A stretch of 64,000 nucleotides of DNA from an uncultured Candidatus Saccharibacteria bacterium (GTDB taxonomy: Bacteria; Patescibacteriota; Doudnabacteria; UBA920), in the NCBI GenBank assembly GCA_964416765.1, contig CAYQEU010000001.1, positions 276,480 through 340,479 on the forward strand, read 5' to 3'. The number at the start of each line of letters is the position of its first letter. Position 1 is the stretch's first letter. The notes under the pieces were generated by a model, which saw only the letters and a list, made by a program, of their open reading frames with translations, ran no database searches and was not told where the DNA came from. This document shows positions 1,367 through 46,268 of this stretch, piece by piece. The translations under genes were made by a program, and so were the position numbers.

Positions 1367-3496
1367 CTAACAAGGGACTAAGTTTTTGAGTTTTTCTTGC
1401 GAAAACGGAACGCGAACTCGTAGTCGAGATTCCACTGGTAGCCCGGGCGCGCCCATACACCCGTCGAGCCACAGATCGTCTCCGCGGCGCCCCAGGTCGA
1501 AGACGTCCGGGTCGCCGTCGGAATCTGCGATTTGTTTCATTCCTGTGTAAAACCAGTCGCCTTCCGGCTGATCGAGATTCTGTAAACGATAATTTGGTCC
1601 GAATTCTGCTGGTAGTAATTCCAAACCAAGTTCTTCAGCCCGGGCATATAATTGATCAGTCGTTGGGTAGCTGGTAAAACCAAGATCGGCAACTGTAAGC
1701 CGTACATAGTCTAGTTTTTCTTTGTTTTGTGCGGTTACAAAATCTTTACTATGCAGCATGTCCTTAGCATAGGTACTGATTTGTACGCCAGCTGCCTCCA
1801 TTTCTTTTTCAAGCTGATCTCTTGTTTTTCCGCCGATTTCAACCTGGCCCCGACGAATTTCACGCTCAGGGAATGAAACATAGATATGCTCAATATCCGA
1901 TTGCAGCATATCAATACTAAACTCGCCGATATAAACCTTGGTTGATTCAGTAATCTCACTTTTGCCAAGCGCGATTTCTTGTGGTTCGCACTTAATACCG
2001 GCAACGATTCTGATAATTTTTGCGGCATCTGTTTTAGGCATTTCGGGAGTCAATTCCATATCGCCTAGCTTCAAGTAAAAATCACTCTCTTCGGGATTAA
2101 AATCACGGAAATGAACTTCTCCACGTTCTGTAAGCACATGGTAATCCTTAACTTTGATATTACTCAGTTCGCTCTCGGAAATCTTTCTAAAGTCACGAAG
2201 CTGGCCAGTATCAGTTTGCGTGGTACGAAGCTTTTTAAGTGCGTCGATAACGTCGTCATAATAAGGATCATTAGGTTGGAGGTATTCATCATCCTGCTTT
2301 TTCATCTGTTCAATCACTTTGGTTTTGAGGTTATACTCCATAGTAATTACTGGTGTATCACCTTCAAGCCTCCCCGCGCGATTATTGAATTTTGGAGCGG
2401 TGCGAAATGACAAGATTTCGATTTCTCCACGCTTCATTTGGTTAATGTAAGAATCGCTCGTACCGACGCAGTGGCGCATATATTCCGATTCTTCCTCAAG
2501 GTGCGGCATATTAAGCAAGCGAGCGACGTAGTACTTGCCAGAATCAGTCTGTATGAGGTTTTCCCAAGGATTAGACGCTTCGCTATCTCCCATTTCAGCA
2601 CGCGCTTTGCGTATCTCTGCAATTTTTTGCAAGGTCTTTTCTTGGTGCACTTCAAGCAAACGATGGAGGCTTCCTTTATCTGTATTTATAAACTTGGGGG
2701 ACTCGACAATAGCATCAAACAAATCACTTAAGTCGATCGTTTCATTAGAAATAAGATGTCTTGCAAGTTTGAGTTTCAGTATGATTTGCTGGCGCTCGCC
2801 AAATTCAAAGTCTTGCACGCCAGCCAGACGGCCGCTTAAAGTCTGGTAGGCACTATTGATAGCCTGCTCTTTTTGTGGGCGGTTTTCTTTTGAAAATGAA
2901 TTTAGCGTCTGCGAGTATCTCTGATTAAGCTCGCTAATATACTTATCTTCAAATGCTTTTCTGCGCTCTGCTTCTACCTGCTCGACTGACTTTTCTTCAG
3001 TTAGAGCTTTCTCATAAAAATCAACTGAGTACCCTGCCATGTTGTCCGTGCGAAGCCGTTCAAAGCCATACCGCTCCAGCACATGGTTTAATCGGTCATT
3101 CCAGCCGTGAAAATTCAGGCGGAGGTAGCCTTGTTCTCGAGCGTACTCAATAAAACGAGGAATCTCCCGCATGGCATTGCGGCCCGTATTACGCGTAGTG
3201 CCGAAGTACTTAATATACGCTTCGCGAGGAATAAAATCTTCACATGCAATGTAGCCAATGATTTCATCTTGACTACCACTTATGAGTTTGTTGAGCGGAT
3301 GGCCGTTTTCTAAAGTATGAATAACATCCTCTACGGCCATAGTGCGTATGGCCTCATCGACCTCAGTGATGCCGAGTGTGATTGCACGGATAGCATCTTT
3401 TTGTTCTTCAGTAAGTTGGAGGCCGCGCTTTTGTTCGACCTGTTCTTGTTCCTCGGTATACAAGGGAGCGGGAACTTCTCGATTTCTAGGGTTCAT
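1367..3496 (-). CDS. DGR target protein (709 aa). The N-terminal ~650 aa have no recognised domain. The C-terminus is a CLec/FGE-like variable ligand-binding module holding the VR.
   Basis: Long ORF whose C-terminal codons are the VR. The TR-encoded equivalent ADSDGNPNVFNLERNEDDLWLNDKWANPDNKWNLDNKFAFRF has the AAC-codon-rich signature typical of DGR variable regions. The N-terminus has no signal peptide. Confidence 0.75.
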   Translation of the reverse strand: MNPRNREVPAPLYTEEQEQVEQKRGLQLTEEQKDAIRAITLGITEVDEAIRTMAVEDVIHTLENGHPLNKLISGSQDEIIGYIACEDFIPREAYIKYFGTTRNTGRNAMREIPRFIEYAREQGYLRLNFHGWNDRLNHVLERYGFERLRTDNMAGYSVDFYEKALTEEKSVEQVEAERRKAFEDKYISELNQRYSQTLNSFSKENRPQKEQAINSAYQTLSGRLAGVQDFEFGERQQIILKLKLARHLISNETIDLSDLFDAIVESPKFINTDKGSLHRLLEVHQEKTLQKIAEIRKARAEMGDSEASNPWENLIQTDSGKYYVARLLNMPHLEEESEYMRHCVGTSDSYINQMKRGEIEILSFRTAPKFNNRAGRLEGDTPVITMEYNLKTKVIEQMKKQDDEYLQPNDPYYDDVIDALKKLRTTQTDTGQLRDFRKISESELSNIKVKDYHVLTERGEVHFRDFNPEESDFYLKLGDMELTPEMPKTDAAKIIRIVAGIKCEPQEIALGKSEITESTKVYIGEFSIDMLQSDIEHIYVSFPEREIRRGQVEIGGKTRDQLEKEMEAAGVQISTYAKDMLHSKDFVTAQNKEKLDYVRLTVADLGFTSYPTTDQLYARAEELGLELLPAEFGPNYRLQNLDQPEGDWFYTGMKQIADSDGDPDVFDLGRRGDDLWLDGCMGAPGLPVESRLRVRVPFSQEKLKNLVPC
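1396..1526 (-). repeat. DGR variable repeat (VR), at the 3' end of the target gene.
   Basis: The counterpart of the TR with N at the TR adenine positions. It lies inside the last ~45 codons of the 709-aa ORF and is 1 nt longer than the TR between anchors. Confidence 0.8.
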
Positions 3497-3539
3497 ATGC
3501 TTTTAGATAAAACGTCATGACTTAATGCTAAAATCCAAT

Positions 3540-4514
3540 TTATAAAAACTTAGGAAAAACGGCTTGGAATTTTTCGGCTGTAGTAATCATCCAATCAAAA
3601 TACTTATCCCATTCTAATTCATTTTCAAAATTGCCAGGTATAGATACCTTGATCCTGCTAGCTTTCTTTTCCGGCAATTCCATCCACTCCAACTTTTGGC
3701 CAAGTTCCGCTTCGATCTGATCTTTGCTTGCAAATAATTTATGATATAACTCTTTGTTATCTGATATATAAATTTCACAGGCAAATAGATTTTCTCTGGA
3801 GTTTATAGTCAGTGCAATATGGCATTCGCTACTGCCAATGCTGATATTAGTCCAGTGCTGAGGATAGCTTTTTTGAAAACGAAGTCTTGAGTTATTTTTC
3901 TTCCCATAGCTTTTCAAATCATTCCAAAACTGTAATTGCTTGATCTTGGTATCGGTGAGTTCGGCGCTCTCAGCCGAGCTTTTTACCGCTTTAGCCCAGT
4001 CATTCGGTTTAGAGATCACTTCAAACTTAGGAGCAAATGGCGAATCGGCAATTTGCCATAATTCAATCTTCAGTAGATAAAATCCGATTTCTTCATTAGT
4101 GTTCTCGTTTAGCCAGTCGATAGCTTGGCGGTGTTCTTCCCTGACATCTTTTACTACCCAAATAACGATACGAGCATCATAGCCGGAAGCATAGGTAATA
4201 ATTTTACCTAAGTGATCGTGATTGGTAATTTCCAGTTGGTTTTCAATAATTATTTTATTACCAGTATTTTCTTCTTCAGCTAATATATCGACATTAAAAC
4301 TACCGACTTTAGCTTCGGTTTGTATCAGCTTGATATCAAAACCAATTTCATCACTAAGCAGACGAAGGTTTTCTTCTAAAGCCAACCATTGAGTGAAATC
4401 AATTGCTTCATGTTTCCAACCTTCACGCAATTCAATTTTCTTAAGTTTTCCTAATTGATTCATTGGCTCAATTATAGCAAAAAATCGCCTTCTCGGCGAT
4501 TTTTTGTGGGTCAA
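3540..4514 (-). CDS. Restriction-endonuclease-like (PD-(D/E)XK / NucS-like) N-terminal domain fused to a DUF4268-like C-terminal domain.
   Basis: 324-aa ORF in a markedly AT-rich stretch. The N-terminal GWKHEAIDFTQWLA...VDILAEEE...IIIENQ pattern is nuclease-like. Confidence 0.45.
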   Translation of the reverse strand: MTHKKSPRRRFFAIIEPMNQLGKLKKIELREGWKHEAIDFTQWLALEENLRLLSDEIGFDIKLIQTEAKVGSFNVDILAEEENTGNKIIIENQLEITNHDHLGKIITYASGYDARIVIWVVKDVREEHRQAIDWLNENTNEEIGFYLLKIELWQIADSPFAPKFEVISKPNDWAKAVKSSAESAELTDTKIKQLQFWNDLKSYGKKNNSRLRFQKSYPQHWTNISIGSSECHIALTINSRENLFACEIYISDNKELYHKLFASKDQIEAELGQKLEWMELPEKKASRIKVSIPGNFENELEWDKYFDWMITTAEKFQAVFPKFL

Positions 4515-4563
4515 TATAATCAGGTACGAAATGACCCTTCTCGTACTCCGAACCTATCTCAAG

Positions 4564-4638
4564 GTGGCTGGGGTAGTAGGATTCGAACCTACGAATGACG
4601 GGACCAAAACCCGCTGCCTTACCACTTGGCTATACCCC
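4564..4638 (-). tRNA. tRNA-Gln (anticodon UUG).
   Basis: Minus-sense sequence TGGGGTATAGCCAAGTGGTAAGGCAGCGGGTTTTGGTCCCGTCATTCGTAGGTTCGAATCCTACTACCCCAGCCA. It folds as a cloverleaf with anticodon loop TTTTGGT, CCA encoded, and is similar to E. coli tRNA-Gln. Confidence 0.85.
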
Positions 4639-4784
4639 AATATATCAATTTCGTAACCCAAATTTTACCATATTTTAGGCCATTAGTAAAGGGTTTGAGG
4701 CGTGACAAACTGCTAAGTATGTGGTATAGTCTCTTGAATACCCAAGGGGTATTCTATTTCTAGCAGGGGGACCTAAATCTATTT

Positions 4785-5438
4785 ATGAGTAGTGAAAGTA
4801 TACTGACCGGGACGTCCGGTCAGGCAACGGCGAAAGCCACGTTCAAAAACGTAACGGAAATTTCGGACAACCGCTACGTTCAGCCAATCTTGGAACGGAT
4901 GTATAATCCGGCGACCGAGGGGTCCGAATTCGCTTGTCTCGCGGCAAACATGGGCGAAGAGCTGGGTAGACATGCCTGGCACAACGTCCTTCGGGCAGGG
5001 GAAAAGGTCGCTCTTGTTCCCATTCTCAACTCCGGTATGTTTATCTGGAAAGGCGTTCACAGTAAGGTGAAGCCCGTCCAGGTCTGCCCCATAGATATGG
5101 AGCGGAAATACAACGACGACCGGAGCATCAGAGTTGAGGTTTACAAGAGCCGTCTTCGCGGGGCGCCAGCCGACCACGCGTTGATACTCGAACCGATGAT
5201 TGCGACGGGAGCTAGCGCCCTCGACGCACTTAAGCTCGTTTCGGAATGGAGACCAAAACGCATCAGCATCCTCAGCGTGCTGTGCGCTCCTCAAGGTCTT
5301 GCCGCCATCGAGCAGGCGTATCCGAACGTAAAAATCGTGACCGGCAAAATCGCCGGCGGTCTCGATGAGAACAGTTACATAATTAACCCTGGAATCGGGG
5401 ATTTCGGCGACCGGTGCTGCGGCGTGCCGTCGCACTAA
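4785..5438 (+). CDS. upp: Uracil phosphoribosyltransferase.
   Basis: PRPP-binding motif ILEPMIATGASALDAL and the C-terminal YIINPGIGDFGDRCCG signature. Confidence 0.85.
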   Translation: MSSESILTGTSGQATAKATFKNVTEISDNRYVQPILERMYNPATEGSEFACLAANMGEELGRHAWHNVLRAGEKVALVPILNSGMFIWKGVHSKVKPVQVCPIDMERKYNDDRSIRVEVYKSRLRGAPADHALILEPMIATGASALDALKLVSEWRPKRISILSVLCAPQGLAAIEQAYPNVKIVTGKIAGGLDENSYIINPGIGDFGDRCCGVPSH

Positions 5439-5546
5439 CACCAACCAACTCCCTCATAAATAACCAAGGATAGAGCGTCTTTTCTTCGGGAAAGGCGTTC
5501 TTTTTATGCTATAATTTAAAGAGCTAACCCGCCAAAAGGGCTTTTT

Positions 5547-6395
5547 ATGTCTGACTATTACAATCCCAAACGCACTAAATACCTATATGAACCAGGTTCA
5601 AAATATCCTTTCCGCTTGTCTCGGAGCAAATTGGAAAATTTCCTGAATTGCCCCCGCTGTTTTTACATGGACCGCCGACTTGGGGTTGGTCAGCCGCCGG
5701 GATATCCGTTCAACCTCAACTCCGCTGTGGACCATTTATTGAAAAAAGAATTCGACCTGCACAGGGCCAAAAACACCAGGCACCCCATGTGCGAACATTA
5801 TGGAATTGACGCGGTGCCGTTCCAGCATCCGAAGATGGATGAATGGCGTGATTCGCTTCGTGCCGGCATAACTTATTTACACCCGGAAACCAACCTCCTC
5901 ATTACTGGCGGCGTTGATGACCTTTGGGTTAACCCCAAGGGAGAATTAATTATTGTTGATTACAAAGCTACCTCTAAAGATGGGGAAGTGAGCCTGGATG
6001 CCGAATGGCAGGATGGTTACAAACACCAGATGGAAATCTACCAGTGGCTGTTCCGTAAAAACGGGTTTAAAGTGTCTGATACTGGCTACTTCGTTTACTG
6101 CAACGGCAAGCGCGACGCCGAAGCATTCGATGCCAAACTGGAATTTGATATCAAACTTTTGCCTTACAAAGGCGATGACAGCTGGGTCGAGAAAGTCATA
6201 GTGGCGGCTTACAACTGTTTGCAGGGGGAACTCCCCGCGCCAGGACCGAAATGCGACTTCTGTGCTTACCGTTCCGCAGCCGGCAGTGTGGAGAGCAATC
6301 TCCAAACTCCTGCCGCGCCTACCCGCGCGCCTTCTACTGCGCCAAAGAAAATTGCCCGTGCCCCGAAAGCCAAACAAAAAACTGCGCTATTCTAA
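5547..6395 (+). CDS. PD-(D/E)XK nuclease-family protein, Cas4/RecB-like, with two CxxC pairs.
   Basis: CPRCFY, GGVDDLW, IVDYKAT, QMEIYQWL and CDFCAY motifs. There is no CRISPR array in the window. Confidence 0.6.
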   Translation: MSDYYNPKRTKYLYEPGSKYPFRLSRSKLENFLNCPRCFYMDRRLGVGQPPGYPFNLNSAVDHLLKKEFDLHRAKNTRHPMCEHYGIDAVPFQHPKMDEWRDSLRAGITYLHPETNLLITGGVDDLWVNPKGELIIVDYKATSKDGEVSLDAEWQDGYKHQMEIYQWLFRKNGFKVSDTGYFVYCNGKRDAEAFDAKLEFDIKLLPYKGDDSWVEKVIVAAYNCLQGELPAPGPKCDFCAYRSAAGSVESNLQTPAAPTRAPSTAPKKIARAPKAKQKTALF

Positions 6396-15317: not shown

Positions 15318-15343
15318 AAAAGCCCTCCTTTCGGAGGGCTTTA
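15318..15343. terminator. Bidirectional hairpin terminator aaagccctcc-tttcg-gagggcttt.
   Basis: Perfect 10-bp stem between convergent genes. Confidence 0.55.
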
Positions 15344-16217: not shown

Positions 16218-16292
16218 TGGGGTGTAGCCAAGCGGTAAGGCAGAGGACTCTGAATCCTCCATGCGAAGGTTCGAATCCTTCCACCCCAGCCA
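16218..16292 (+). tRNA. tRNA-Gln (anticodon CUG).
   Basis: TGGGGTGTAGCCAAGCGGTAAGGCAGAGGACTCTGAATCCTCCATGCGAAGGTTCGAATCCTTCCACCCCAGCCA. Anticodon loop CTCTGAA. Confidence 0.85.
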
Positions 16293-16299
16293 AAAAAGC

Positions 16300-16360
16300 C
16301 CTCCTATATATTTCTTCACTAAACGGATGCACCGAATCGTTCAGAAATATATAGGAGGGT
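16300..16360 (+). terminator. Hairpin with a 17-bp stem and a conserved 27-nt loop (copy A), immediately 3' of tRNA-Gln.
   Basis: Stem ccctcctatatatttct / agaaatatataggaggg. Loop tcactaaacggatgcaccgaatcgttc. A T-rich tract follows. Confidence 0.5.
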
Positions 16361-16365
16361 TTTGT

Positions 16366-16569
16366 TTACTTAGAATATTCCAGGATGTCGCCCGGCTGGC
16401 ACTCCAGAGCCGCGCAAATTGCTTCCAGCGTGGATAGGCGGATGGCCCGGGCTTTCCCGTTCTTTAGCACGGAAATATTGGCCATGGTGATGCCAACCTT
16501 CTCGGCCAGTTCCGTGACACTCATTTTTCGCTTGGCCAGCATTACGTCAATGTTTATGATAATCGCCAT
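16366..16569 (-). CDS. XRE-family HTH transcriptional regulator.
   Basis: 67 aa. MSVTELAEKVGITMANISVLKNGK is a Cro/CI-type HTH. Confidence 0.8.
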   Translation of the reverse strand: MAIIINIDVMLAKRKMSVTELAEKVGITMANISVLKNGKARAIRLSTLEAICAALECQPGDILEYSK

Positions 16570-36759: not shown

Positions 36760-37371
36760 ATGTCACTTACCGAAAGACAAAACCAACTTCTCAAATATAT
36801 AGTGGAGCAAATCCGGGATTATAACCTTCCCCCGTCCTTGTCAGAAATGGCCGAGTTCCTGGGCGTGAAGTCAAAACGCGCTGCCGCCAAGCATCTGGAA
36901 GCCCTGGAAGAGGGCGGGTACATTAAGACTTCAGGCAAAGCCAGGGGAATTACCGTCCTAAACAGCATGCGCGAAAGCCTTGAGAAAGGTTTGATCCGGG
37001 TGCCTATACTGGGAAACATCCAAGCCGGTTCACCGCACATGGCTGAAGAGCACATTGAAGACTGGATTAACCTCCCCCAGACACTCGTTCGTGGAAGACG
37101 GGACGTATTCGTCCTCAAAGTCAGGGGAGACAGCATGGTTAACGCAGGGATATTTGAAGGGGATTTGGTCATTGTGCGGCCCACCCGTGAAGCCAAAAAT
37201 AATGATATTGTCGTCGCCCTTCTCCATGACGAAGCCACGGTAAAGCGGTTTATCCAAATCAAGAACCGGGCTTACCTGAAAGCCGAGAACCCGGACTACG
37301 CCAACATTTACCCGAAAGAAGAGTGGATGATCCAGGGCAAAGTCGTGGGGGTCATAAGAAACTTAGAATAA
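36760..37371 (+). CDS. lexA: LexA repressor.
   Basis: N-terminal HTH, Ala-Gly cleavage region, GDSM serine and the conserved Lys (VKRF) of the S24 peptidase domain. Confidence 0.9.
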   Translation: MSLTERQNQLLKYIVEQIRDYNLPPSLSEMAEFLGVKSKRAAAKHLEALEEGGYIKTSGKARGITVLNSMRESLEKGLIRVPILGNIQAGSPHMAEEHIEDWINLPQTLVRGRRDVFVLKVRGDSMVNAGIFEGDLVIVRPTREAKNNDIVVALLHDEATVKRFIQIKNRAYLKAENPDYANIYPKEEWMIQGKVVGVIRNLE

Positions 37372-37394: not shown

Positions 37395-37574
37395 ATGTCA
37401 GAATTAGAAAGGTCAAAAAACAAAATCGTCACCCAGCTCCAGGGTCTGTGCGCCCACTGCGCCGCCGGCCGGGAGCACGACTGCCCCGTCCAGCAGATTG
37501 CCCGTGAGATCAAAGCCATCTCCGGCATCCCTCTACTGGTCAACAACGAGTTTAGGGGAGTGGTGTGGCAATGA
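37395..37574 (+). CDS. Small Cys-containing protein (59 aa) co-oriented downstream of lexA.
   Basis: MSELERSKNKIVTQLQGLCAHCAAGREHDCPVQQIAREIK... It is below the 60-aa track cutoff. Confidence 0.3.
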   Translation: MSELERSKNKIVTQLQGLCAHCAAGREHDCPVQQIAREIKAISGIPLLVNNEFRGVVWQ

Positions 37575-37578
37575 TGAT

Positions 37579-37639
37579 AAAACACATTCCCTTCCTCACT
37601 TAGCGGAGGCACCGAATCGTTCGGAAGGGAATGTGTTTT
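37579..37639 (+). terminator. Hairpin with a perfect 17-bp stem and a conserved 27-nt loop (copy B).
   Basis: Stem aaaacacattcccttcc / ggaagggaatgtgtttt. Loop tcacttagcggaggcaccgaatcgttc. Followed by ttttataaa. Confidence 0.5.
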
Positions 37640-37686
37640 ATAAAGAGGAACACATCAAAAATCGCTTCGCAGGGCGATTTTTTGTT

Positions 37687-41378: not shown

Positions 41379-41507
41379 GCGAATTTTCACAAAAAAATTT
41401 GCGTCTTTGGTTTTTGGTGCTATACTGGAGAAAACTAAAGATCAAAAATAAAAAGACAACCAGCTTTTCAATTTCGAGGCTGGTTTTATTATTTATTTTT
41501 TGAATTA

Positions 41508-43977: not shown

Positions 43978-44131
43978 TAATATTATCCAGAGTGGCGGCG
44001 AGGGAACTGACCCCGCGACCCGCCCGGCAACCTCTGTTTGTGCCCTTGGCATAAGCAAGCTGGTGCCTCATTCAGCCCGCAAGGGAAAGATAATTGGAAT
44101 ATCTACTTCGGGCGTTTGTAGCCCGTTTTTT
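43978..44131 (+). ncRNA. SAM-I (S-box) riboswitch with an intrinsic terminator, upstream of metK.
   Basis: uuauccagagUGGCGGCGAGGGAacuGaCCC..GacCCgCCCGGCAACC...GGUGCcucAuuCagcccGCAagggAAAGAUAA matches the SAM-I consensus (UUAUCAAGAG, GGxGGAGGGA, CCCGGCAACC, GGUGC..AA.UCC.GCA, AAAGAU). Terminator hairpin cgggcg-tttgta-gcccg plus UUUUUU at 44109..44131. Confidence 0.8.
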
Positions 44132-46159: not shown

Positions 46160-46199
46160 TACTAACACTTACATAAAAAACCAGGACAGCCGCTTTATG

Positions 46200-46222
46200 C
46201 CAGGGCTTAGCCCTGGTTTTTT
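46200..46222 (+). terminator. Rho-independent terminator ccagggc-ttag-ccctgg followed by TTTTTT.
   Basis: Hairpin plus T-run. Confidence 0.55.
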
Positions 46223-46268
46223 ATTGGTTTTTGTTGGCAATGGCATCTTTTTAAGGCATAATAAAAGC

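Follow-up and report, generated by a model that had tools for sequence, protein, structure and literature searches.

The two hairpins A and B in a 64-kb stretch of DNA (64,000 nucleotides, hereafter the window) are true copies of a small repeated element, previously undescribed and restricted to the lineage of a Doudnabacteria-like CPR bacterium. The element is ~65–75 nt long and consists of a copy-specific, nearly always perfect stem of 13–21 bp that carries an apical module of 25–27 nt. Six loci were found, namely after tRNA-Gln (A), after a 59-aa ORF of the lexA operon (B), after rpsI (C), after clpP (D), in the rpsM/rpsK gap (E) and in the rplM/rpsI gap (F). Judged from sequence, we put slightly less than even odds (roughly 45%) on the element being a mobile palindrome kept as an RNA hairpin in 3' UTRs or between cistrons, with a tip that would be read by a protein for processing or protection of the transcript. 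The LexA encoded in the window shares 80% identity with a protein that bears the name Candidatus Doudnabacteria, the gene content is typical of CPR/Patescibacteria, and one 681-kb contig holds both the window LexA and the S9 cluster of copy C.

Table 1. Positions in the window of the two hairpins, their apical modules and the neighbouring features.
Feature	Position	Strand	Details
Hairpin A, whole element	16295..16363	+	5' arm 16295–16315, loop 16316–16342, 3' arm 16343–16363
Hairpin B, whole element	37577..37641	+	5' arm 37577–37595, loop 37596–37622, 3' arm 37623–37641
Apical module of A	16316..16342	+	UC/UC 2x2 internal loop, AC/GU helix, 4x4 internal loop, CGG/CCG helix, AUGCA pentaloop (MFE fold, pair counts)
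Apical module of B	37596..37622	+	Motif match and MFE fold
tRNA-Gln(CTG), upstream gene of A	16218..16292	+	Encoded CCA end 3 nt before A
67-aa HTH_3/HTH_26 regulator gene, convergent to A	16366..16569	-	Stop codon abuts the 3' foot of A (2 nt away)
59-aa Cys-rich ORF, upstream gene of B	37395..37574	+	After lexA (36760–37371); ends TGA TGA TAA
Canonical intrinsic terminator	37657..37682	+	15 nt 3' of B; identical in both strains though B diverged

The loops of A (TCACTAAACGGATGCACCGAATCGTTC, 16316–16342, +) and B (TCACTTAGCGGAGGCACCGAATCGTTC, 37596–37622, +) are identical at 24 of 27 positions, a count given in a preliminary description of this DNA and borne out by a re-reading of both loops. 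A degenerate loop motif allowing up to three mismatches occurs in the window at these two sites only, and in none of 100 shuffles. The same description had assigned 17-bp stems to both copies. This holds for the perfect core of A, in which 17 Watson–Crick pairs join 16299–16315 with 16343–16359 and a further G·T pair plus three of A-T bring the total to 21 (16295–16363), but not for B, which has 19 perfect pairs (37577–37595 with 37623–37641). The MFE is −33.7 kcal/mol for A and for B, with z-scores of −8.1 and −7.8, respectively. The two stems are essentially unrelated (10/22 identical), as had been claimed; other members of the family, however, retain residual stem similarity. The 5' arm is pyrimidine-rich in every copy.

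The identical sequence of A is also present in metagenome contig WBZR01359053.1 (L012, 567–602), which ends mid-loop. Assembly probably failed here at the inverted repeat, an illustration of how such palindromes break assemblies. In addition, a canonical terminator lies ~1 kb upstream of A (window 15319–15342, AAAGCCCTCC-TTTC-GGAGGGCTTT), and its arms are the same as those of the outer stem of A (16295–16304 / 16353–16363: AAAGCCCTCC ... GGAGGGTTTT). Because of these shared arms, A may be a 49-nt element (TATATATTTCT, loop, AGAAATATATA) within the loop of such a terminator.

A strict loop pattern gave no match in 185,579 species-representative genomes and none in viral contigs. The pattern was relaxed to 19 specified bases by using the B' locus of a second strain, B' being an orthologue of B with a fully compensated stem. 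The six genome matches obtained in this way were rejected as GC-rich coding sequence without hairpins, at about the chance expectation. Of 11 metagenome matches three are real, i.e. B, C (directly behind the rpsI stop) and D (behind the clpP stop); the other eight, which are GC-rich, mostly coding and without a hairpin, were likewise set aside as about chance. A covariance model (R1) built on A, B, B', C and D scores A at 86.8 bits and B at 78.7 bits and, with filters off, finds no further copy in the 64-kb window; weak matches at 41391, 43133 and 54471 are promoter or coding sequence and not copies. In the second strain R1 detected C', D' and a new copy, E, in the rpsM/rpsK gap. A more distant relative (L043; S9 73% identical) contains a counterpart of E (E2) and copy F, both with a second type of loop (YCACCGTGCKRATCGCAAATGGTTC); the loops of E2 and F are 22/25 identical, and this type 2 loop is ~65% identical to type 1. 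Three of the six loci (B, C and D) are present in two strains, and the total sample amounts to ~10 sequences at 6 loci, some sharing descent.

With two copies in the 64-kb window and four in ~54 kb of the second strain, extrapolation from these two segments gives roughly 20–35 copies per 0.7-Mb genome. None of the families in Rfam 15 overlaps any copy at the gathering threshold, and permissive E-values return only generic long-hairpin (miRNA precursor) matches of 14–27 bits against cut-offs of 76–120. Likewise, a literature search did not find the element described. The covarying homologues that the preliminary description had suggested looking for therefore exist, and no Rfam family claims them. 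As to the specific regulons that it had named for checking, the motif is no widespread regulon signal; it is limited to one narrow CPR lineage, in which each ~100 kb of sampled DNA has a handful of copies.

Relatives with LexA 90% identical (L031 5149–5206, equal to L032 2945–3002, and L033) also have a hairpin of this architecture, which fills the space from the lexA stop to the 59-aa ORF start. Its perfect stem is 13 bp long (GTTTTTTCGAGCC / GGCTCGAAAAAAC) and its loop 24 nt (CCCGCAGGCACCAGCCGAGGACAA), whereas the whole space measures only 23 nt in the window. This hairpin may represent a third loop type of the same superfamily.

Pairing statistics were obtained from eight type-1 sequences. 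In these, pairing extends to 97% of stem cells, and both partners have changed in 17 of 22 pairs. None of 500 shuffles reaches any of the measures, and sliding the partner by 1–3 columns lowers the paired fraction to 35–51%. The main stems of this set contain zero G·U pairs. Further, the orthologous stems B/B', C/C' and D/D' differ by substitutions and by indels mirrored in both arms. The absence of G·U pairs and the mirrored indels, which selection on the RNA alone would not predict, point to maintenance of the palindrome at the DNA level, by hairpin-templated correction. Flaws in the stems include one A·C mismatch in E and a 3x3 internal loop in F. All copies share one fold, with z-scores from −3.1 to −8.1.

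The predicted MFE fold of the tip is UC | AC ... GU | UC around CGG ... CCG. In general terms the apical architecture consists of a 2x2 UC/UC internal loop, a 2–3-bp helix, a second internal loop, a small GC helix and a 5–6-nt loop, and the type 2 hairpins and the possible type 3 hairpins (L031–33) have the overall shape of type 1. Pairing of AC/GT together with CGG/CCG has two independent compensated changes and no break, with a counterpart in the type 2 loop. The apical A-U pair has become G-C in both B' and D'. An inner stem of AACGG/TCGTT had been proposed earlier. It is possible: 97.5% of its cells pair, with one compensated change and one break. The AC/GT and CGG/CCG pairing has no break and is the MFE fold, and either of the two may form. 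The most variable part of the module is the pentaloop (AUGCA, AGGCA, AGAAA).

Two strains could be compared with their flanking genes as a neutral reference. There, 125 of 293 4-fold sites differ (43%), and neither ClpP nor LexA differs in protein sequence. Between orthologous loops 15 of 81 positions have changed (18.5% vs 43% at 4-fold sites; Fisher p=5e-5), and the loop changes occur only at positions that vary among paralogues, or are compensated. In the stems, 27% of pairs have changed between strains as against 67% expected under independent drift of the arms, and all changed pairs are still complementary. The element is thus conserved and not hypervariable; the notion that the hairpins evolve faster than their surroundings was rejected, synonymous divergence between the strains being 38–50%. 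Judged by these substitution counts, the apical module is under purifying selection, and the slow change of orthologous loops, at under half the neutral rate, is what recognition by a trans factor would lead one to expect. According to the preliminary description the stem covaries fully while the loop is conserved, which is the reverse of what a plain terminator needs and implies a loop recognised by a protein or RNA, or copies of a small structured element. The two-sided changes in the paired columns, the loops below the neutral rate and the family of covarying copies support this view.

The element arrives by insertion immediately 3' of a gene end (a stop codon or a tRNA 3' end), in the orientation of that gene, and then persists for a long time, as the comparison of relatives shows. 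Copy F fills 76 nt (an insertion of ~70 nt) between the rplM stop and the rpsI start, where just 2 nt are present in the window lineage and in another relative. Copy B is absent in relatives with LexA 90% and 86% identical, in which only a normal terminator stands behind the 59-aa ORF, and C is absent in L043 and L044. Gene spacing indicates that E, F and C are all missing from one relative: only 3 nt separate the genes at the sites of E and F, and rpsI runs into the gene behind it, so that C would not fit. Remnants of stem sequence are shared between loci, CAATAYATTT by F and E2 and ATAAA...TTC motifs by B, B', D and D', which implies that the stem travels with the element and diverges later. 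Insertion with presence/absence variation is an aspect that the preliminary description did not contain.

These insertion and absence polymorphisms also favour a purely selfish DNA element, the main rival reading, which we regard as somewhat unlikely. As in REP/RAYT or IS200/IS605 PATE, an HUH/Y1 transposase encoded in trans would move a single-stranded DNA hairpin that has no host function; the loop and the stem-loop junction would be the transposase site, the stems would be kept perfect via replication template-switching and not through selection, and the orientation would be that of one replication strand. In its favour are also the loop types, which go with the genome (type 1 being that of the window lineage and type 2 that of L043), the stem remnants common to paralogues of one genome, as in F and E2, and the Watson–Crick-only stems with their mirrored indels. 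Moreover, A and B are on the same strand, and from the one to the other the cumulative GC skew climbs from 0.25 to 0.62; the direction in which the DNA is replicated, and not that of transcription, may underlie the orientation bias. However, selfish mobility leaves unexplained the purifying selection on the loops of fixed copies that stay put, and all three comparable loci are retained in both strains. No transposase, including a RAYT Y1/HUH gene, was found in the 64-kb window or in the flanks read, and the stems, which are what transposases usually read, are the least conserved part. The two readings are not exclusive; a mobile element may have been exapted for a host function.

Similar palindromes are known from Enterobacteria and Pseudomonas, where REP/REPIN sequences with their RAYT are short dispersed extragenic palindromes that form long hairpins, lie mostly just 3' of genes, are long-lived and fall into lineage-specific classes (PMC3116915, PMC3337134). 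Dispersal as extragenic palindromes just 3' of genes, long persistence and lineage-specific sequence classes are also seen here. In REP/REPIN, however, the stem (REP, 5' GTAG) is conserved and the spacer varies, whereas in the present element the stem is copy-specific and the loop conserved; the 5' arms of paralogues are ~45–65% identical and lack GTAG. In addition, copy numbers are apparently in the tens here, by extrapolation, against hundreds. The hairpins do not resemble MITEs either: the arms differ between copies, and no clear direct duplication surrounds F, the only clean insertion, where the TAA beside the 5' arm and at the 3' end is indistinguishable from the stem itself. A conserved tip on a free yet perfect stem is the reverse of the conservation pattern of REP or MITE, and offers a tractable case for separating selection on RNA structure from DNA-level self-correction of palindromes. 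Integron attC sites were dismissed, as the stem bases are ATAAA.../...TTTAT and not RYYYAAC / GTTRRRY, the centre is conserved, and the neighbours are core genes (tRNA, rpsI, rpsM, clpP, lexA). A bacterial SECIS or recoding hairpin was rejected on the grounds that the preceding stops are TAA, TAG or TGA, several with extra in-frame stops, and that one copy stands behind a tRNA. Similarly, A and B were considered and rejected as attL/attR of a 21-kb island at tRNA-Gln. The interval consists of housekeeping genes (L10, L7/L12, transporters, lexA), its GC content has no sustained shift across the 21 kb, and other copies occupy unrelated loci, which together argue against A and B as island ends.

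With respect to genes, the placement is strict. Every copy begins 0–8 nt past the end of the upstream gene, B for example 2 nt past the stop of the 59-aa ORF, and 6/6 loci are in the orientation of that gene (p=1/64). The element is always within or at the end of a transcription unit: E and F are inside ribosomal-protein operons (alpha and L13-S9, respectively), and D is located 25–30 nt before the next co-directional gene. Genomes of CPR/Patescibacteria are tiny and tightly packed, which makes a repeat family notable that sits right at the ends of genes and in places even separates ribosomal-protein genes that are translationally adjacent. To our knowledge, almost no non-coding elements have been described in this group.

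Ordinary intrinsic terminators, partly bidirectional and with large loops, that are alike only through recent shared descent would also stand behind genes, and A in particular has the appearance of one, with a GC-rich stem base and TTTTGTTT directly 3' of the hairpin, between convergent genes. Terminator stems that are long, perfect and A/T-extended occur commonly here (for example L044 6949–7000 and window 4478–4506), and the stem feet (5' ATAAA, 3' TTTAT) resemble an A-tract and a U-tract. Against this, C and E have no U-tract, B and C have a canonical terminator 15–40 nt downstream, that of B being perfectly conserved between strains, and E and F lie between co-transcribed ribosomal-protein genes; from these three features it follows that the copies are not plain terminators. 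A terminator scan calls the neighbouring canonical terminators but neither A nor B, and the combination of a U-tract straight after the stem with the end of a transcription unit is found at A only. The preliminary description had both copies preceding T-rich tracts, which is correct for A; the T run at B belongs to its own stem, and termination there has a separate signal (37657–37682), the spacer to which is scrambled between strains. Known Rho-independent terminators resemble the element in that a hairpin follows the gene, and copy A has their GC-rich base and U-tract; they differ in loop size (3–8 nt vs 25–27 nt here), and most stems here are AT-rich. Given also that the loops are better conserved than neutral sites and paralogue stems only ~50% identical, we consider it very unlikely that they are ordinary terminators.

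Under the preferred reading, that of a mobile palindrome retained as an RNA hairpin, the element would be transcribed as the 3' UTR or an intercistronic part of the RNA of the upstream gene. The RNA would form a long double-stranded hairpin with the tip as the recognition site of a putative trans-acting protein. Its role would be to define, process or protect the 3' end of the transcript, by acting as a barrier to 3' exonucleases and/or as a double-strand RNase substrate of RNase III length; the stem of 13–21 bp plus the apical helices is compatible with an RNase III site (~20 bp dsRNA). Termination would be incidental only, except in copy A, the GC-rich base and U-tract of which would also make it a bidirectional terminator for tRNA-Gln and the convergent HTH gene. 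Since the HTH stop abuts the 3' foot of A, this hairpin is the only one available to end both transcripts.

Stable hairpins that stabilize or process transcripts from behind a cistron are known from E. coli REP stabilisers, the 3'-UTR inverted repeats of chloroplasts and the intercistronic RNase III sites of phage T7. Like the present element, they stand right behind a cistron, are poor terminators, sometimes lie between co-transcribed genes and have a stem of about two helical turns. In those systems, however, no apical module is known to be sequence-conserved across unrelated genes. Recognition of double-stranded RNA that is specified by the loop occurs in the AGNN tetraloop hairpins of yeast Rnt1p and in the histone mRNA stem-loop with SLBP. 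In both, as here, the tip is conserved and the stem free; there, a protein is brought to the 3' region of a transcript through its contact with the tip. These systems are eukaryotic, with short loops, and the analogy is one of logic with no homology implied.

The conserved and exposed loop might alternatively act by base-pairing, either as a kissing loop, for which the self-complementary UGCA of most pentaloops would be suited, or as the seed of a small RNA derived from the 3' UTR. We find this hardly credible, as the pentaloop varies more than any other part, the sequence of the type 2 loop is a different one, and no complementary target of at least 10 nt exists in the window save the copies' own antisense strand and a single 11-mer, at chance level, on the opposite strand. 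A CsrA-type GGA loop was also considered, CGGA being invariant in type 1, and dropped as type 2 has no GGA. CGAATCGTTC also resembles the T-arm of tRNA-Gln next to it (CGAATCCTTC), which we took to be a coincidence.

If it is true that a protein reads the tip of such retained hairpins, a new layer of transcript 3'-end handling would exist in these organisms. A broader version, which we consider quite improbable, is that each lineage of the CPR clade has its own tip on the same architecture (type 1 for the window lineage, type 2 for L043, perhaps a type 3 for L031–33), as if read by a dedicated co-evolving protein. This could be a 3'-end processing or stability factor, in which case the system would be the bacterial equivalent of hairpin recognition specified by the loop, or an insertion machine that places the hairpin precisely between a stop and the next start.

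The surroundings of A and B provided several further observations. The 59-aa ORF contains a CAHC ... C motif and ends in three in-frame stops (TGA TGA TAA); its position behind lexA is kept in relatives down to 86% LexA identity, and no Pfam family matched it. Gene calls after lexA differ between contigs, with a 57-aa minus-strand ORF in some and the 59-aa plus-strand ORF in others (L001/L004 versus L002/L003) on the same DNA, which is an annotation inconsistency and not a biological difference. Two DUF2975 genes come after the convergent 67-aa HTH gene. A SAM riboswitch (RF00162, 47 bits) is located at window 43980–44096 (+), upstream of an S-adenosylmethionine synthetase gene. A further long-stemmed, large-looped hairpin is present at 46173–46224 (+), and comprises ATAAAAAACCAGG, a 26-nt loop with an inner AGGGC/GCCCT helix, and CCTGGTTTTTTAT. 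It shows no sequence kinship with A or B, and probably represents a terminator that has a branched tip. Finally, a region of lower GC content (42–46%) at 1367–6395 encodes a PcfJ-like protein, a DUF4268 protein and a PD-(D/E)XK nuclease and adjoins a second tRNA-Gln (TTG, minus, 4565–4639); this region may be a small integrated island.
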